Shown: positions 17,534 to 37,503 of the stretch, piece by piece
Numbering within the stretch: the stretch's first letter is position 1
How the letters are laid out: the number at the start of each line of letters is the position of its first letter
DNA from: Candidatus Chisholmbacteria bacterium RIFCSPHIGHO2_01_FULL_52_32
Lineage (GTDB): Bacteria; Patescibacteriota; Microgenomatia; UBA1400; Chisholmbacteraceae
Direction of reading: 5' to 3'
Length of the DNA stretch: 64,000 nt
NCBI GenBank assembly: GCA_001816585.1
Contig: MHCJ01000003.1
Coordinates: 650,681-714,680 of the forward strand
Program-made: the position numbers and the translations under genes
The notes under the pieces: model-generated
Database searches by the model: none
What the model saw: the letters and a program-made list of their open reading frames with translations, nothing else
Told to the model about the DNA's origin: nothing

Positions 17534-18085
17534 TCACGGAAAACAATTCGGCCAAAGTGCGCTTCTGCCGACGGAAATGAGATAAGCAGCAGTTTGAACA
17601 GATTCCTCGGCGTTGTAGCGTAAGGCTGGGTCGGCGTCCTCACCCATGACAGTTCGGTTGCTTTTCCAAGCTGTCGGTCCGAATTGATACAGACCGACAT
17701 AGGGGCCGTTTACTGCATTGGGATTAAAACCGGATTCGCAAACTGCAACATGCCTGAGGATATTGGGATCAACCCCATACTGGGCGGAAAAGCGTTCGAT
17801 AGAGGTTTGTATTTCCTGGGAAGAAACAGGGGGTGGCGGCGTCGGTGTCGGTATGGGAGTGGGACTGGGAGTTGGGATTGGCGTCGGGGTCGGCATTGGT
17901 GTTGGTGTTGGTGTCGGTGCCGGCGTTGGAGTTGGTGCCGGCGTTGGCGAAGGAGACGGTGTCGGAGAGGGCGTAAAAACCGTGCTTAGCACATTTCCGG
18001 ACTCCGTCCTTGAAAGCGCCCAAATTGTTCCCGGGACACCTGACAAAAAGAGTCCGACCAGAAAGTATTTTACGAGAGGGTTCAT
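17534..18085 (-). CDS. secreted Rpf-like transglycosylase with a Pro/Thr-rich linker
   Basis: Signal peptide, (PTP)n linker encoded by the DNA tandem repeat 17820-17990, C-terminal [25 protein letters not shown] matching the Rpf/Transglycosylase-like domain. Confidence 0.65.
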
Positions 18086-29481: not shown

Positions 29482-29503
29482 TAATCCACCTCCGGGGTGG
29501 TTA
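29482..29503. repeat. D-module (taatccacctccggggtggttaat) at the stop of 29508..30479
   Basis: Third copy of the D-module. Confidence 0.8.
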
Positions 29504-29507
29504 ATTG

Positions 29508-30479
29508 TTATTCATATTTTTCATTCCAGCGATCAGTCAAAGCTGTGTACGTGTATGCATCAGCTACTAAGTTTGCGTATGTCTCATCATTATTGTAGGT
29601 TTTTGCAATCTTAATGACTTCGTTCCTACGTTCATCGCTAATCCACTCTCCATAAACACGCTGATTGGCGAAATACTCCTTTACGGCTAAGTCTACCGAT
29701 TTTTTATCATTCAGGGGCTTGGTTGAAGTGACTTGCATTATGCCATAAGTTCCTCGTCGGATAATGAGGGATTTGATTCTTTCTAAAAACCTGAACCATT
29801 TTGGTCGCTGGATATTTTCGACAATAGCAACGGCAAGAACGATAGCTTTGTCAGCGTGAAATTGTCTACTCTTTATCTCAATTTCGTCAATTAGGTTGTC
29901 ATCAATTGTTGCAAGCGACCGTTGAAATATCTCTGCTGGATGTTGATCGCGATTTTCGTAAGTCTTGTAAATTAATACAGCTAGACCAGCTCCTACAAAA
30001 GAAGACCATATGTTATCAACAAGTCCCTGCCATGTCGGGAAAAATGAGCCTACATACTTTGAATTTGACGCCCACCCGCTGAAGAATCCAGTAATAGGTA
30101 TGGATAAAATCGAAAAGATATGCACTAAATACTGGGAATATACATTAAAAAATCGTTTCAATCTCCCAGAGCGAATAATTAATTGTAAGAGAGCTCTACC
30201 ATTATGTAATAGGGTATGAAGTGAACCTATAGTAATTCCAACGATGAGATGTTGATTTATTGATAACTTGCTCCCAAACATTGAGATGGCTAAATTTATC
30301 GCAATAAATATTGGGATCATTCGAAAGGAGACGAACCGGAGTGGAGAAATGCTAATAAAAAGACTTGTGAAGTCTGATGTGCCGAAGTAAATATCTGGCC
30401 ATCTGTTTTTGAATATCCAGTAAAATATTTCTATAAAAAACAATCCAGCACTGATAACGATCAAGACATCGGGAATCAT
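29508..30479 (-). CDS. polytopic membrane protein with C-terminal lytic-transglycosylase (SLT)-like domain
   Basis: About 6 TM helices, then AIVLAVAIVEN...RGTYGIMQV resembling the SLT catalytic Glu and GLMQ motifs. Confidence 0.5.
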   Translation of the reverse strand: MIPDVLIVISAGLFFIEIFYWIFKNRWPDIYFGTSDFTSLFISISPLRFVSFRMIPIFIAINLAISMFGSKLSINQHLIVGITIGSLHTLLHNGRALLQLIIRSGRLKRFFNVYSQYLVHIFSILSIPITGFFSGWASNSKYVGSFFPTWQGLVDNIWSSFVGAGLAVLIYKTYENRDQHPAEIFQRSLATIDDNLIDEIEIKSRQFHADKAIVLAVAIVENIQRPKWFRFLERIKSLIIRRGTYGIMQVTSTKPLNDKKSVDLAVKEYFANQRVYGEWISDERRNEVIKIAKTYNNDETYANLVADAYTYTALTDRWNEKYE

Positions 30480-30592
30480 AAGAATGATGTGCCAACCTTA
30501 TACTAGCATCAAAAAGTGAACTCTATCGCCGAAAAAATCCGCCCTTGCGAGTCTCAAATAATCTCTATGGCACAGCTTAGTATTAGATTGTT

Positions 30593-32494
30593 TCATCCGG
30601 CCAATATCTTATGAATTCTGTGGGCATATTTATCAATTAACTGGGCCCTTTCAAAATTAATGGCTTCAGGAATATTGCTCTGAGGATATGTTGTTCTTCC
30701 GGTTTCAACTTTCTTTCGAGCAATTTCTCTACAAACAACATCAGTTACTAGCTCACCGATTAATACTCGTGCATATCTTTCGTTTTGATTCTCCCCATAA
30801 GGACCTATGTACATTTTTACTGAAGGTGCTTGCGTCGCAACAGTGATTATTCCGCTAGCTCTATCAAACATAACCCTGTACCGAGGATCTTCTTTGGGGC
30901 TGTATGTAATATCTTTAAAGAGACCTTTATTCTTTGGAAGTCCATCCACAATATCCGTCGGTTCTTTCGGTTTTGAACGAACTTCTATTAGGCACTCTGC
31001 TTTGAGTTCTCCAAATCTGGCGGTAAGCAAACCGAGGGCCCCTACTTGTCTGCCTTCAACTTTTACAGTCTCTGATGCAACATTACCAATTACATCAGAC
31101 TTTTGAAATTGAACTTTTGGCGTATGGACGATGAGCTCTTCTGAATCACTTTGGATTAATATCTCTTTATTGAATGGTATCGTATGGGGAACTAAGGCCC
31201 TAAGAGTAATGCTCTTAATCTTTCCGCTTACTACGGTTGTTATTGGTGGCAGGAAGGCAAAACCATTTTCTGGAATTTCCGGCTGCCTATGTAGGTCCTC
31301 ATCTAATCCAGTATCGCTTACCTCATCTCCAAGTTCCTCTTTTGTAATCTCACCAAGATCCTTCAATAATTTTTTAAATCGTTCTTTGGTTTCTCTTGTT
31401 TCAATATCCCTTTCTTCCTCCTTTCTTCTCATTTTTTCTTCTTTAATAATCGGTTCAAGAATTTCTTCAACGGCCAACTTTAATGATTTTATAAATGGAT
31501 GTTTGTTATTAAGCTCATCTCTTTTATCAGATATCACCTCCTCGCCTGAATTTAATAAGGTGTAAATATATTCGCATGTTACTTGACCAAATAGTCTTTC
31601 TGCTTCAGGGGAACTATCATATTTAAACAGTGTGATATCGTGTATGGCCTTACCATCTGATATTAATAACCCATTCTCTCTGTATGGACCCGCCTCCTCC
31701 CTCCCGCTCAGCGGCAATTCAGATCGATTGATTTCGATAGTAGCGTCGATTCTTTGACCTTTATAGTTAATAAAAAAAGAAGCTTGATATATCTTTTTTC
31801 CTCTTGGTGTTTTGTAGGAAATTTGAACTGGTTCACGCTTTTTATCTCCTTTATCTGATCGCTCAATAAGCTGCACAATCCTGTTTGGATCTTGGAGAAT
31901 GTTTCTCAGACTAAAATACTTCTGTAGTTGTTCTTTTAATCTCTCGAATTGAGGTGTTTTAATTTCTTCTCTGGTAGTTTTAAGTGTTACCTCCGTCCCG
32001 CAATCATAGATTCCTAGTCTACCCTTGTGTGTTGCCTTGACGGTTACAGGTGATTTTGAGTCATAATAAGCTTTATCATCAACATCGCATTCATATAGAT
32101 AGCCGTTTTTTACTGATCTAACTCTTCCATAACCAACGCCTACCATAGCTTCCTTCAATCCTCTTCCATAGTAACCTCTTACTATAGTCGGTGATTCACG
32201 GCCGCTCGTTTCTCCTCCATAACGGCCGATCTTTTCATCCATCTGCTGTCTATCAAAGCCTTCAGCTTGATCGACAACTCGAAAAGTAGATCCTATTCTT
32301 TTTCTTACAATTTCAATATGAATTAATCCTGATGTTTTCGAGTCGCTTTTTTCTATTCGACTATAGCTATCATCAGAATTTGTTATAAGTTCCACAAGAG
32401 CATATACGGGAGAATCTCCAACAAGTTGCTTCGCATTCTGAATTAATACTCTCGTCTCGATGTGTATTGGCCTTCTCTTTGTGTCCATAATCAA
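30593..32494 (-). CDS. MORC-like GHKL (Bergerat-fold) ATPase with a charged coiled-coil linker and an unknown ~200-aa C-terminal domain
   Basis: N-box ELITNSDDS, G1-like VVDQAEGFD, G2 GYYGRGLKEA (the G-x-Y-G-x-G-L-K pattern seen in MORC/MutL-type HATPase_c_3). Third gene of an operon with 4-nt overlaps. Confidence 0.65.
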   Translation of the reverse strand: MIMDTKRRPIHIETRVLIQNAKQLVGDSPVYALVELITNSDDSYSRIEKSDSKTSGLIHIEIVRKRIGSTFRVVDQAEGFDRQQMDEKIGRYGGETSGRESPTIVRGYYGRGLKEAMVGVGYGRVRSVKNGYLYECDVDDKAYYDSKSPVTVKATHKGRLGIYDCGTEVTLKTTREEIKTPQFERLKEQLQKYFSLRNILQDPNRIVQLIERSDKGDKKREPVQISYKTPRGKKIYQASFFINYKGQRIDATIEINRSELPLSGREEAGPYRENGLLISDGKAIHDITLFKYDSSPEAERLFGQVTCEYIYTLLNSGEEVISDKRDELNNKHPFIKSLKLAVEEILEPIIKEEKMRRKEEERDIETRETKERFKKLLKDLGEITKEELGDEVSDTGLDEDLHRQPEIPENGFAFLPPITTVVSGKIKSITLRALVPHTIPFNKEILIQSDSEELIVHTPKVQFQKSDVIGNVASETVKVEGRQVGALGLLTARFGELKAECLIEVRSKPKEPTDIVDGLPKNKGLFKDITYSPKEDPRYRVMFDRASGIITVATQAPSVKMYIGPYGENQNERYARVLIGELVTDVVCREIARKKVETGRTTYPQSNIPEAINFERAQLIDKYAHRIHKILAG

Positions 32495-33147
32495 TCCCTT
32501 CTTTTAAGCATCCCCCCGCGTTTTCCTACAAATAGCTCTTCTTTGAAATTTTCCTCACAAAAGTGAAGTAAATTCATAATGTCGTCTCTGCCATATAGCT
32601 CTACATACTGCTTAATTTCAATAAGATTGTCTTTTTTGGTAAGAGGTAGGCTATCCGGTGTACAAAAAATTAATTCATAGAAATCTAATGGCTGAATTTG
32701 ATCTCGTTTCCCAACTTTGTACAAATGGTAAGCCTTACTTTTCTCTATTCTCTTTACGAATATTCCTGCTCTTGTTCTCTCGTCTCCTTTACGTCTAACA
32801 ATAACCACATCTCCTGAAGAAGGGGCTAATTTGTTGTGTATTCTCTCTGCAGCTCTGGTACCAAGAGGTGTGATATTAAATCCCCGAGAAGTACTACCGG
32901 TAATATAATGCTTGTCAGTTCTACATCGGAGCCACGTTTTATTGACTAGGGATGAATCTGGCCACTCTGGGTGTCCGATCAGATGGAATCTAGATGGAAA
33001 AAGTGTAAAAACTTTCTCGACCAGATTCTCAAATGTCGGATTCTTATTCGTTTTAAGCAAGGAAAAAAGTGCGTACGTTACCAATTCGTCATACGAAATT
33101 TTCATGTAAACATCAGGTTCATAAAGCTCACGAGGTTTTGAGATCAT
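32491..33147 (-). CDS. hypothetical protein (middle gene of the GHKL operon)
   Basis: 218-aa ORF whose ATGA overlaps both neighbours (translational coupling). No recognisable motif. Confidence 0.5.
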   Translation of the reverse strand: MISKPRELYEPDVYMKISYDELVTYALFSLLKTNKNPTFENLVEKVFTLFPSRFHLIGHPEWPDSSLVNKTWLRCRTDKHYITGSTSRGFNITPLGTRAAERIHNKLAPSSGDVVIVRRKGDERTRAGIFVKRIEKSKAYHLYKVGKRDQIQPLDFYELIFCTPDSLPLTKKDNLIEIKQYVELYGRDDIMNLLHFCEENFKEELFVGKRGGMLKRRD

Positions 33148-33359
33148 AACCTAAATTCCTTCTTCTTTTTCTTAATAAAACGAGCCTTCGTCATCTTAAG
33201 TTGGGAATCGATTGCGTAGAAGATCTTATTGATCTCTTCATCGGAGTAATCGTAATTTGCTCTGTTGGAGAGATTTCCGAGAATTCGAAGTTTCTCGAGG
33301 ACGATATTTGTTCTTTGTACTGCCAGGCGTTTAAATCTATCTTGTCGTGTTTCTGTCAT
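33144..33359 (-). CDS. small basic protein, possible DNA-binding regulator (first gene of the GHKL operon)
   Basis: 71 aa with a predicted helical core RFKRLAVQRTNIVLEKLRILGNLSN and a K-rich tail. Confidence 0.4.
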   Translation of the reverse strand: MTETRQDRFKRLAVQRTNIVLEKLRILGNLSNRANYDYSDEEINKIFYAIDSQLKMTKARFIKKKKKEFRL

Positions 33360-33681
33360 AGGAACATTATCAATTGTGTATAAACAGCGCTATTATACCA
33401 TATATGGTATCATTTGTAAATATCTAATATTAGAAAATGATAATCTAATATTGCCTGATCTGTATATAAACCTTCACTTGAGATAAATAAAAACTGCCCT
33501 TCCGGGCAGCATTTGATTGTGTTCCTAAATATCCTAGTTCTCAAGTGCTCTTCAAGATATGAACTTTCGCTGATGCTATATCTCAGAGTTAGACACTATT
33601 ACCAGATAATCTGATAGTTTTGTTATTGACACTTTCGTAAAACTTTCATATAGTTTAACCGTTACCTTACAGTTCGTCATT

Positions 33682-35094
33682 ATGCTTACACCTAAACAAA
33701 AGAAAGTACTAGATTTCATAACATCTTTTATCAAGACAAATGACTATTCTCCATCATTAGAAGAAGTCGCGAAGAATTTTAAACTCAAGTCTGTTTCGAG
33801 TGCGCATCAATTTGTTGATGCCCTCCATAAGAAGGGATATTTAAAAAAAATAGAGAATCAACAGCGCTCAATTGAACTAATAATTGGATTGGTAGAGATC
33901 CCTTTATTTGGTTATATTTCCGCTGGTGAGCCTATTGAGGCTATTTCGAATCCAGAACCCATAAAAGTACCTCACAAGATGCTCTCGAAGAGTGGTCTTC
34001 ATTATGCACTAAAAGTTAAAGGCGATAGTATGGTTGATGAAGGAATAAATGACGGAGCTACAGTCATAATTCGAAGACAAGAGACGGCTACGAACGGCCA
34101 AAAGGTAGTCGCTCTTATAAACGGAAATGAAGCGACGCTCAAGAAGATTTATAAAGAGAAGAAAGGTTTTAGACTCCAGCCAGCAAATTCCAGCATGAAG
34201 CCAATTTTCGTAAAAGATTTAATAATTCAAGGAAAAGTGATAGGGGTACTACCAAACTATGAAGATACAACTAGACCTACGGGGAAAATAGCTCAAACCA
34301 AAATTCCTACAAAATTTGCTTTAGACAGGATTATTTCTGGTGATGTTTTAGAGGTAATGTCTCAAATTCCTGATAATAGCATTCATCTAGCTATAACTTC
34401 CCCGCCCTATAATGTGGGTAAAGATTATGACAACCATAATGATCGTATGAATTATCAAGAATATTTAGAATGGCTTGAGAAAGTGTGGAGAGAAACAAAA
34501 AGGGTACTTGTACCAGGGGGAAGGTTTGCACTAAATATTGCTCCGACAGGAATCAAAGATTTCGTACCTATTCACCACGATTTCGCAAATCAATTGCGTA
34601 AAATAGACATGAAATTTAGAACAGAGATTATTTGGTACAAACAAACAATGCTTAAACGTACTGCCTGGGGAAGCTTTAAAAGCCCAGCGAATCCTCATAT
34701 AGTACCATCGTGGGAATATGTATTAGTTTTCTCAAAAGACAAAGACAGGCTGGATGGAGATCAGAAAAACTCTGACATAACAAAGCAAGAGTTTATGGAT
34801 TTCTCTGATGGATATTGGAAAATACAGCCTGAGACAAAACGAAATGGACACCCGGCACCTTTTCCCGAGGAATTAATTTACCGCCTCATAAAATTCTATT
34901 CTTATAAAGGAAATACTATTTTAGATATGTTTGGTGGAACTGGAACAGTTGCAGTAGTGTCCCACAAGACTAAAAGACGTTTTATACATATAGACATTTC
35001 AGAAGAATACAACAGGGTAGCACAAAAACGCTTGGATGCCATCAAAAACCCCCCACAACTTTTTGGAGAGAATTCCTACCGGTTTGCTGCCTAA
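33682..35094 (+). CDS. fusion: LexA repressor (wHTH + S24 autopeptidase) plus beta-class N4/N6 DNA methyltransferase (SPPY, m4C-type)
   Basis: Residues 1-~200 align to E. coli LexA along their length: LTPKQKKVLDFI, the cleavage-site SAGEP, Ser nucleophile GDSM, Lys in ATLKKIYK, and PANSSMKPIFV. Residues ~215-470 carry MTase motif IV TSPPYN followed by motif I FGGTGT. It is a single uninterrupted ORF. Confidence 0.8.
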   Translation: MLTPKQKKVLDFITSFIKTNDYSPSLEEVAKNFKLKSVSSAHQFVDALHKKGYLKKIENQQRSIELIIGLVEIPLFGYISAGEPIEAISNPEPIKVPHKMLSKSGLHYALKVKGDSMVDEGINDGATVIIRRQETATNGQKVVALINGNEATLKKIYKEKKGFRLQPANSSMKPIFVKDLIIQGKVIGVLPNYEDTTRPTGKIAQTKIPTKFALDRIISGDVLEVMSQIPDNSIHLAITSPPYNVGKDYDNHNDRMNYQEYLEWLEKVWRETKRVLVPGGRFALNIAPTGIKDFVPIHHDFANQLRKIDMKFRTEIIWYKQTMLKRTAWGSFKSPANPHIVPSWEYVLVFSKDKDRLDGDQKNSDITKQEFMDFSDGYWKIQPETKRNGHPAPFPEELIYRLIKFYSYKGNTILDMFGGTGTVAVVSHKTKRRFIHIDISEEYNRVAQKRLDAIKNPPQLFGENSYRFAA

Positions 35095-35124
35095 ATACTC
35101 AAAGCGGTTCGAAAAACTATAGAA

Positions 35125-35940
35125 TTAGCCAAATAATGTTTTACCTTCAAGCACCCCTTCATCAATTGGCTCATCAGTAAAATTGGGAACAACCTCTTGT
35201 CTCCAGATCCTTAGGTCGGAAAAAAGCGGTTTTCCTCCGTCAGTCCTGGAAAAATCCAGTTTTTTAACTTGGGAACATTCAGTAGTACTTGGGTGTGTTG
35301 AAAAAACGCGATCCAAATAAGCTTCCGACTTTTTTCGTAAGCTACTTGCTTCATTATCGCCTTTGACGAACTTCTTATCCAAATCTTGAGTTACCAAGCA
35401 ATATTTGATGTTGTTATTTCGAAGTGCTAAAGCCCAGAACAAAACAGCATCGTTTCTGGCATGGTCACTTGTCTTACAGTTTAAAAGCGCAAATACTTTG
35501 AGTCTACCGCCTTGTTCTTTTGATAGCACAACTATATCGGAGTCTGGCCACACGCCGGTGGTTGTTTGAACGCAGCGTCGTCTAGCATCTAAAGTTAAAA
35601 ATCGCACAATTTCCTGGGCTCGTGGCTTTTTTCTGAGATGATCTCCTTTTACGGCCACTATCCCTTCGTTGTTCAAGTTTTCATTTATGATATTTCTAAT
35701 GAATATTTCAAAATTATTTCCACTGGCTGCTACCCAACTCTGCCTTGCCTGGTTTAAATTTCCTCTGCCTTTTTCCTGATAGAGTCTAATGTAAATTTTC
35801 TGAGTAGTCTCCATGACCTTTCTTTCAGGAACTTCCTCCAATTGAACAGTGTTCAAGATCCTCCCTACATCATTAATGGGTTTATTCCCAAAGCTCTGCA
35901 AATCCCGTTTTGCTTTTTGATAAATTATTTCGAAATCCAT
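35125..35940 (-). CDS. putative type II restriction endonuclease (convergent partner of the MTase)
   Basis: 271 aa with a PD...(D/E)xK-like stretch (WPDSDIVVLSKE). The position convergent to a methyltransferase fits a restriction enzyme. The motif assignment is weak. Confidence 0.45.
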   Translation of the reverse strand: MDFEIIYQKAKRDLQSFGNKPINDVGRILNTVQLEEVPERKVMETTQKIYIRLYQEKGRGNLNQARQSWVAASGNNFEIFIRNIINENLNNEGIVAVKGDHLRKKPRAQEIVRFLTLDARRRCVQTTTGVWPDSDIVVLSKEQGGRLKVFALLNCKTSDHARNDAVLFWALALRNNNIKYCLVTQDLDKKFVKGDNEASSLRKKSEAYLDRVFSTHPSTTECSQVKKLDFSRTDGGKPLFSDLRIWRQEVVPNFTDEPIDEGVLEGKTLFG

Positions 35941-36110
35941 AAAATATTGATTGTGAGTGTACTAATACTAATAGTTTAACACAAACACCAGACTAAAACT
36001 CCGTCCGTATAGATTACCTCGCCGTAATAGCTATTGCAGGTCCAGCATGCAAAAGTATGAAAGGTGTTTACGGGATGTCAAGTGTAGTTTAGCGAGCTTA
36101 AGGGGATTTA

Positions 36111-36839: not shown

Positions 36840-37319
36840 CTATCGATGCTTTTCTACCCATTCCCAGAATTCTTTTGGGGAAAAAACAAGGAGGGGCTTG
36901 AGAGCCTTCCTTACCCGATCTGTGAGGATATGGCCTTTATCAAGAGAAAGAAGGAAATGAGCTCCGGATAGTACAGCCCCTGCAAGAATGGGAGCATCGT
37001 CCGGATCTACGATCACACTATGGAACTTCTTTATGATGTGTCGAGGGGCATCAGAGATCACACGGATCACTTTCTTCTTCAGAAGTGCTTCAAGCTTGTC
37101 CGGATCGACACCCAATTTGTGAAGATGTTTTGTAACTTCTTCAATAACAAATGGGGTGGTGAACAACCGAAGTTTCCCCTTTGCTCCGGCAGAGAGAATT
37201 TTTCTTGAGCCACCACTGGGAGAGGCAAGAGCTGAAAGGATGACCGAGGAATCAAGGAAGACGGTTAATGATTGCCTCAATGCGCTTCTGCTGTTTTTCC
37301 GTGAGTTGATCATCGGCAA
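36840..37319 (-). CDS. vapC: PIN-domain ribonuclease toxin (VapC)
   Basis: VFLDSSVILSAL and downstream conserved acidic residues. The start is uncertain because the track ORF overlaps the antitoxin by 68 nt. Confidence 0.75.
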   Translation of the reverse strand: MPMINSRKNSRSALRQSLTVFLDSSVILSALASPSGGSRKILSAGAKGKLRLFTTPFVIEEVTKHLHKLGVDPDKLEALLKKKVIRVISDAPRHIIKKFHSVIVDPDDAPILAGAVLSGAHFLLSLDKGHILTDRVRKALKPLLVFSPKEFWEWVEKHR

Positions 37320-37503
37320 TCCACTGCTTCATCTCTCGCAGGGAGAACGACCGCAATTTCTGTTGTTGCCGTTTCACCGGTTTAATCTCCGCAAGCGGGC
37401 GAGAGCGGTAAAACAAGAGTAACGATTTTCCTTCCTCCATCGCAGACCTCAGCTTGGAGAAATCTTCACGGAGTTCCTTGGTGGAAATGGTTTGAATCTT
37501 CAT
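37252..37503 (-). CDS. vapB: antitoxin of the VapBC pair
   Basis: 83 aa; the TISTKELRE...SLLLFYRSRPLAEIKPV N-terminus resembles a Phd/YefM antitoxin. It lies immediately upstream of the PIN gene. Confidence 0.65.
   Translation of the reverse strand: MKIQTISTKELREDFSKLRSAMEEGKSLLLFYRSRPLAEIKPVKRQQQKLRSFSLREMKQWIADDQLTEKQQKRIEAIINRLP

Follow-up and report, generated by a model that had tools for sequence, protein, structure and literature searches.

Among DNA methyltransferases (MTases) with an N-terminal helix-turn-helix (HTH) domain, such as M.SsoII/M.Ecl18kI, M.EcoRII, M.MspI, and M.ScrFIA, the operator overlaps the MTase promoter and the enzyme represses its own gene (PMC3874152). Such short HTH heads, together with controller proteins (C-proteins) and promoter methylation, are the known answers to a long-standing question, namely what keeps type II restriction-modification (R-M) systems from killing their host while they become established and while DNA is repaired or recombined. 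Here, we describe a gene (33682–35094, forward strand) in which a complete LexA repressor forms the head of a DNA MTase. It lies in a 64,000-nucleotide stretch, hereafter the window, of Candidatus Chisholmbacteria bacterium RIFCSPHIGHO2_01_FULL_52_32 (contig MHCJ01000003.1, positions 650,681 to 714,680). Like the M.SsoII/EcoRII-type enzymes, the protein carries its DNA-binding domain at the N terminus and has a predicted operator in the MTase promoter. Unlike them, where the known heads are HTH domains of ~70 amino acids (aa) without a peptidase, it has a 190-aa LexA with an S24 domain and conserved Ala-Gly, Ser, and Lys; its operator is an 11-bp tandem direct repeat, and the same head is found on four MTase families. 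Judged by this layout, the fusion works like the M.SsoII/EcoRII-type family but is not a member of it by descent, its head being a full LexA. We propose, with a probability of roughly 0.6, that the gene belongs to a mobile type II R-M unit in which the MTase represses itself through its LexA head, and in which cleavage of the head after DNA damage re-induces methylation.

The fusion gene is a single uninterrupted open reading frame (ORF) of 470 aa starting with ATG (NCBI OGY18742.1), annotated by NCBI merely as “repressor LexA”. Residues 2–62 (33685–33867) form the LexA winged-HTH (wHTH) DNA-binding domain (Pfam LexA_DNA_bind PF01726, 5e-15), whose recognition helix (about residues 39–46, SSAHQFVD) co-varies with the operator. 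Residues 74–187 (33901–34242) form the S24 peptidase/dimerization domain (Peptidase_S24 PF00717, 3.7e-29). The match of the whole protein to the NCBIfam lexA equivalog model TIGR00498 covers residues 2–192 and reaches 170.5 bits, compared to a curated cut-off of 110.95. A first-pass annotation of this DNA, made from the letters alone, had pointed to the motifs SAGEP, GDSM, and ATLKK as the cleavage apparatus, and these hold on a proper alignment with solved E. coli LexA (7b5g/1jhh): the predicted and conserved self-cleavage site Ala81-Gly82 (33922–33927), Ser116 (34027–34029), and Lys154 (34141–34143) align with A84-G85, S119, and K156, respectively.

The LexA part is followed by a variable, probably disordered linker (residues 190–215, 34249–34326), which is poorly conserved in the alignment and has a predicted local distance difference test score (pLDDT) of ~33 in an AlphaFold2 model; this model, built from a 14-sequence alignment, is of low confidence overall (mean pLDDT 63) and was used solely for the floppy linker. 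The MTase domain, of the beta-class N4/N6 type (residues 234–449, 34381–35028; N6_N4_Mtase PF01555, 2.9e-46), has motif IV SPPY (residues 240–243, 34399–34410) ahead of motif I FGGTGT (residues 417–422, 34930–34947), which is the beta-class order. All these features are on the forward strand. PADLOC classifies the MTase part as MTase_II (1.7e-75). It probably makes N4-methylcytosine, because its closest relatives in the PDB are TTHA0409 and N4-cytosine MTases.

The same annotation had described the product as a complete LexA in frame with a beta-class MTase, and had named a missed stop codon or frameshift between the two as one possible objection. The fusion is real. The identical 470-aa protein is present on at least 22 contigs of independent assemblies, including NCBI MHCM01000003.1 (1.16 Mb, Candidatus Chisholmbacteria), and the three-domain architecture is common to more than 120 protein clusters at 63–98% identity; a frameshift is excluded on these grounds. 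Furthermore, 61 of 80 loci selected by their LexA head are continuous fusions with a conserved junction. LexA and MTase do appear as separate adjacent ORFs at one related locus (L157), where a 221-aa LexA (1144–1809) is followed downstream by the MTase; the locus may represent either an intermediate state without fusion or a copy with a frameshift. In view of the independent contigs and clusters, we see practically no chance that a sequencing or assembly artefact joined two genes in the window.

Tail to tail with the fusion gene, and separated from it by a gap of 30 bp, lies a gene on the reverse strand (35125–35940) that encodes a 271-aa type II restriction endonuclease (REase) of the BsaWI family with a PD-(D/E)XK fold (Pfam PF18643 RE_BsaWI, 7e-10). 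Orthologues of this REase adjoin the same MTase at L008, L009, L088–L095, L143, and L168–L170, as well as at archaeal and verrucomicrobial loci. Among loci from species-representative genomes and metagenomes, the MTase family of the window, whether LexA-fused (in Patescibacteria) or stand-alone, always adjoins one of two alternative nucleases, namely the BsaWI-like enzyme or an HNH enzyme of ~178 aa (dozens of loci). Since a nuclease always adjoins this family, the LexA-MTase and the BsaWI-like REase are, by gene content, a type II R-M cassette and not an orphan MTase; an archaeal-style orphan MTase (a CTAG-type idea) was dropped because of the same adjacency. The first-pass annotation had not explicitly made this link to an R-M system, which the convergent REase supports. 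No separate small C gene is found between or upstream of the two genes among the ORFs of the window.

The R-M pair lies in a low-GC island (approximate boundaries 29500–36100), delimited by a composition profile, with a GC content of 0.35–0.39 compared to 0.44–0.54 in the flanks; the island also holds an unrelated four-gene GHKL operon. Palindrome avoidance in the window gave no informative signal on the recognition specificity of the system: among 4-bp palindromes, CTAG shows the strongest depletion (observed/expected 0.49), and CCGG shows none (0.98) even though the nuclease belongs to the BsaWI family. The R-M cassette is shared across domains, as the MTase with an HNH or BsaWI-like nuclease is found at 55–82% aa identity in DPANN archaea, Nitrosopumilus, Thermoplasmata, Verrucomicrobia, and Dehalococcoidia (L015–L087); the LexA head is present only on the Patescibacteria copies. 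At two loci (L012 and L013), an Xre-type HTH ORF resembling a C-protein (“...GQIEVAEKLGRTQSYVSKIESGQRRFD...”) is located directly upstream of the HNH REase gene; in such units, therefore, a LexA-headed M is paired with an R that has a controller of the classical type.

The promoter of the fusion gene, TTGACA-17-TATAGT (33626–33654, forward strand), matches the sigma-70 consensus at 11 of 12 positions, is the best promoter-like site in the region, and is kept in the sister loci L008, L089, L090, L095, L168, and L170. A predicted cognate LexA-type operator, TTTCGTA-AAAC-TTTCATA (33633–33650, forward strand), fills the spacer between the -35 and -10 elements and overlaps the -10. A search of the upstream region (33360–33681) for LexA-box palindromes had been proposed; a LexA-type operator is present there, but it is a tandem direct repeat with TTC cores 11 bp apart. 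No palindromic LexA box fits, and the perfect 16-bp palindrome of the region, ATACCATATATGGTAT, belongs to the divergent promoter. The 11-bp geometry is like that of the alphaproteobacterial direct-repeat LexA box, GTTC-N7-GTTC (PMC8565304). Within the 64 kb, the operator is the only exact site, and no other cognate or generic LexA box was found in a scan of the window; almost no extra operators are present in ~540 kb of flanks of the fusion loci. Among 170 loci (~1.7 Mb), 8 have the exact form TTCGTA-N5-TTCGTA, each with a single copy that is always located at the MTase promoter. Autorepression, with the LexA head reading the repeat and repressing its own MTase gene, is strongly supported by these sequence data, because the repeat occupies the region between the -35 and -10 of the MTase gene, is found only at such promoters, and co-varies with the recognition helix.

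The operator of the window belongs to a larger family. Upstream regions of genes with the LexA module carry a tandem direct repeat with an 11-bp period (consensus CTTTCGGTTTATTTTCGGTA, general form TTCnnn-N5-TTCnnn) in or next to a sigma-70-like promoter, and the clade's stand-alone LexAs have the same kind of operator. A position weight matrix of the repeat is matched by 70 of 82 non-redundant upstream regions, while about 8 more have variant half-sites in the same register. The triplet that follows the invariant TTC core is identical in both half-sites of one operator but differs between clades, and it co-varies with the recognition helix: STxHQH goes with GGT, STAH[FHY]H with TAT or GAT, STVNHY with TAG, and HQ[FY] with GTA, the clade into which the window operator falls. 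For example, L131 and L134 share the same D12 partner, and a change from H to Y is accompanied by a change from GGT to GTA. This diversification of half-sites and helices probably insulates each unit from resident LexAs and from other LexA-MTase units.

Some promoters of the family have additional elements. A third half-site, TTTGGT, extends the 11-bp register into the -10 region at several loci, giving three tandem repeats (e.g., L097:96–123 and L102:5945–5972), and at L132, two complete operators are inverted relative to each other at a distance of 55 bp. A perfect DnaA-box nonamer (TTATCCACA/TGTGGATAA) is present within 150 bp upstream of 49 of the 82 LexA-module genes, compared to a background of 0.0027 per 150 bp, and as a rule it is immediately adjacent to the LexA repeat or the -35 (loci L096–L166, e.g., L102:5930–5960 and L125:5900–5960). 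DnaA co-regulation or a composite operator could account for this arrangement. The window's own promoter has no exact copy of the DnaA box.

The REase gene has a promoter-like site of its own, TTGACA-16-CATACT (36054–36081, reverse strand), with a spacer (36059–36072) that reads CGTAAACACCTTTC. The site contains CGTAAA..CTTTCATA, which resembles the MTase operator with the first TTC core lost and a spacing of 13 bp. The pattern CGTAAA-N1-3-CTTTC has three matches in the window compared to 0.14 expected; the third (18061–18074, reverse strand) is within an ORF (17534–18085) and is probably due to chance. No operator-like element was found at the REase promoters of sister loci or of other clades. 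The element in the window may be a diverged copy of the promoter, and it is doubtful that the LexA head binds there. Direct control of R by the head is not claimed, given a statistically significant but degenerate look-alike in the window and none in sister loci or other clades.

To evaluate how general the design is, metagenome contigs were queried with an alignment of the LexA part alone. Besides the 61 complete fusions, the 80 loci returned comprise 13 that are cut by contig ends and 6 stand-alone LexAs (~200 aa), and fusions account for more than 90% of the complete genes in this LexA clade. The C-terminal tails fall into 15 sequence clusters, all of them DNA MTases, which span four Pfam families: N6_N4_Mtase (including permuted forms), N6_Mtase/Eco57I, C-5 DNA_methylase, and MethyltransfD12. 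The LexA head is therefore carried by MTases of beta, gamma, 5-methylcytosine, and Dam-like types, whose families are unrelated. Nearly every fusion is followed directly downstream by a convergent ORF of 170–320 aa, often overlapping the stop codon, and two of ten such ORFs tested are recognizable REases, one EcoRV-like (beside a D12 fusion) and one MvaI/BcnI-like.

Heads and tails have discordant histories. There are 15 pairs in which the heads are at least 80% identical and the tails unrelated, and 90 pairs in which the tails are at least 70% identical and the heads less than 60% identical. Loci sharing heads or tails show no synteny in their flanks, and their upstream neighbors are all unrelated. 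By these three observations, the LexA head and its promoter behave as a module of regulation that can be moved and recombined with M-R cassettes, within a unit that is mobile in its entirety. The lack of synteny and the unrelated upstream neighbors also ruled out the idea that cassettes were exchanged at a constant chromosomal lexA locus. A search of a viral collection for phage carriage gave only distant, stand-alone LexA-like genes. The fusion gene is widespread in ultra-small groundwater bacteria, and it represents a pervasive modular design in Patescibacteria, not a one-off.

The cleavage apparatus of the head is almost universally retained. All of Ala-Gly, Ser, and Lys are intact in 198 of 202 heads (185 of them fusions), even though head identity is only 50–60% overall and the MTase partners fall into 15 clusters. 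This retention argues that cleavage is maintained by selection, and it is the reason why RecA-triggered self-cleavage of the fusion would be expected and why a coupling of the SOS response to methylation is plausible.

In the mechanism that we propose, the LexA head would bind its private operator, TTTCGTA-N4-TTTC[G/A]TA, inside the spacer of the strong MTase promoter, with the fusion presumably acting as a dimer via its S24 domain. On entry into a naive cell, MTase levels would be high, and the accumulated fusion protein would then repress its own synthesis, a scheme of “methylase first, then throttle” that M.SsoII/EcoRII-type systems also follow (PMC3874152). RecA filaments would form on single-stranded DNA after damage, for instance when the partner endonuclease cuts under-methylated sites, and these should sever the head at Ala81-Gly82. 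The promoter, which is close to consensus, would thereby be derepressed, and an S24-MTase fragment would be released intact. The outcome would be a burst of methylation, serving as a DNA-break-sensing homeostat or as an SOS-linked form of restriction alleviation. Because the layout is tail to tail and stop-overlapping, the derepressed MTase transcript would also run antisense into the REase gene and may damp its expression. In short, the system probably shuts off its own protection gene, and it may re-induce it when DNA breaks.

Several observations weigh against this proposal. The second half-site in the window is TTTCATA, not TTTCGTA, and REase promoters generally have no operator, so that any effect on R would be indirect. 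Neither the window nor the fetched flanks contain recA, which says nothing on the rest of the genome. The fragments of cleaved E. coli LexA are broken down; if the same happened here, the MTase could fall and not rise. Finally, members of a small subclade, P0090 (DG/S/R) and P0109 (DT/A/R), have lost Ala-Gly, Ser, or Lys while keeping an identical operator, the HQF recognition helix, and the BsaWI-like REase, so cleavage is dispensable for some members. At its core, the head would therefore serve autorepression, with the sensing of damage as an added layer. The same subclade would fit a reading in which the LexA head is a mere dimeric DNA-binding module for autorepression of the MTase, with self-cleavage and SOS sensing having no physiological role, and autorepression alone does suffice in M.SsoII/EcoRII-type systems (PMC3874152). 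However, a purely structural role would not preserve the scissile bond and both catalytic residues through so much divergence of the head and so many partner clusters, and we consider this reading unlikely.

It could also be argued that the fusion is the organism's SOS master repressor, to which R-M cassettes became fused, for example by becoming hard to lose in this way, the MTase being cargo. The high share of fusions in this LexA clade, the tandem-repeat operators of its stand-alone members, the score above the equivalog cut-off, and the NCBI name LexA agree with this, and no second lexA is present in the window; the scan of the host genome for a regulon and a second lexA covered 64 kb of 1.16 Mb. 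On the other hand, the entire gene, head included, is within the low-GC island, similar heads are joined to unrelated tails in unrelated genomic contexts, and operators beyond the fusion promoters are lacking in the window and almost so in the flanks, which makes a master repressor quite unlikely. Alternatively, cleavage triggered by damage or phage might destabilize or inactivate the MTase (its fragments being degraded by ClpXP or Lon, as with E. coli LexA), with the REase then attacking an under-methylated chromosome as an abortive-infection or addiction switch. The N-terminal cleavage product would have ...ISA or ...IAA at its end, similar to the terminus by which ClpX recognizes cleaved E. 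coli LexA. It is also established that R-M systems act as addiction modules (PMC3874152), but cleavage would also derepress the near-consensus promoter and should raise MTase synthesis, and existing methylation lasts for generations, so that killing would be slow. Such a suicide switch seems very unlikely to us compared to the autorepressed, damage-inducible MTase.

Other features of the island and its surroundings appear to be separate from the R-M unit. The four-gene operon (29508–33420, reverse strand) encodes p323, a 633-aa protein with a weak GHKL/HATPase_c_3 match, p218, and p71. In the first-pass annotation, derepression of this divergent operon was one of two suggested outcomes of cleavage of the LexA head. 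We found no basis for such control: the operon has its own promoter upstream of p71 (33420–33392, reverse strand; 11 of 12 positions matched), overlapped by the 16-bp palindrome (33393–33408), a terminator-like hairpin (33493–33510) lies between this promoter and that of the MTase, and the operon is absent from the other fusion loci examined. The 633-aa GHKL protein, p71, and p323 are present at the window's locus only; matches to p218 elsewhere are limited to L099, L103, and L104, where they are weak, N-terminal, and non-adjacent. The proteins of the operon have no NCBIfam and no PADLOC matches, and it may be an uncharacterized defence cassette. To the right of the island, a PIN_3-domain ORF and an 83-aa ORF upstream of it (36840–37503, reverse strand) resemble a toxin-antitoxin pair, and a Fic-domain gene is located further right, beyond this pair.

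The fusion shares features with several known regulators. With canonical LexA (TIGR00498; E. coli and Thermotoga 3k2z), it has in common the domain order, the equivalog score, the aligned catalytic residues, and an operator in its own promoter, whereas it differs in having a 255-aa DNA MTase at the C terminus, in its location on a mobile low-GC R-M island, and in having no regulon beyond its own promoter detectable in the 64-kb window and ~540 kb of flanks. In C-protein R-M systems (e.g., PvuII and Esp1396I), a dedicated transcription factor likewise times M versus R, and these systems have regulator specificity groups with a potential for mutual exclusion, to which the half-site diversification seen here looks analogous. 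The fusion departs from this scheme in that M itself carries the regulator covalently, with no separate C gene present in the window, and in that operators are generally lacking at the REase promoter.

S24 self-cleaving repressors are also found in mobile elements, such as lambda CI and SetR of SXT, and the CapH/CapP regulators of cyclic-oligonucleotide-based anti-phage signaling systems respond to DNA damage. As in these cases, a mobile element or defence system would hear the damage signal of the host through a cleavable repressor. Those repressors, however, are stand-alone proteins that control other genes, while the LexA head is part of the very enzyme whose gene it is predicted to regulate, so that its cleavage would lift the repression and at the same time untether the enzyme. 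In type I restriction alleviation, ClpXP degrades HsdR after DNA damage. The proposed response is similar in that it would lower self-restriction when unmodified sites arise after damage or repair, but it would do so in a type II system and by transcriptional induction of the MTase, as compared to proteolysis of a nuclease subunit. The LexA-MTase fusion is not described in the full-text literature searched, which left out Sanchez-Osuna, Barbe and Erill 2017 (Environ Microbiol 19:3465) on the SOS network of Patescibacteria. What is new here is probably an autoregulatory MTase head that is a full, probably cleavable LexA with a diversifying operator specificity.

The pairs of recognition helices and half-sites represent a natural specificity code for LexA-type wHTH domains and are a potential source of orthogonal, damage-inducible repressor/operator pairs. 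The public name “repressor LexA” would mislead reconstructions of SOS regulons in Patescibacteria. If our proposal is true, a cleavable LexA head adds a direct DNA-damage input to the control of type II R-M systems, which would amount to an SOS-linked “restriction alleviation” in type II, so far described for type I enzymes only.

Bacteria of the candidate phyla radiation have been reported to depend heavily on R-M for defence. As a tentative extension, which we hold to be possible but doubtful, most LexA genes in a large part of Patescibacteria would not be free SOS repressors but heads of R-M MTases that act as break-sensing epigenetic homeostats, in which RecA-dependent cleavage of the head, set off by self-restriction or DNA damage, leads to a methylase burst and a convergent damping of the nuclease. 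Their helix/operator pairs would be diversifying fast, avoiding cross-repression between co-resident and incoming units. In some reduced genomes, such a head might perhaps be the sole LexA, and the SOS response and R-M would then form one circuit.

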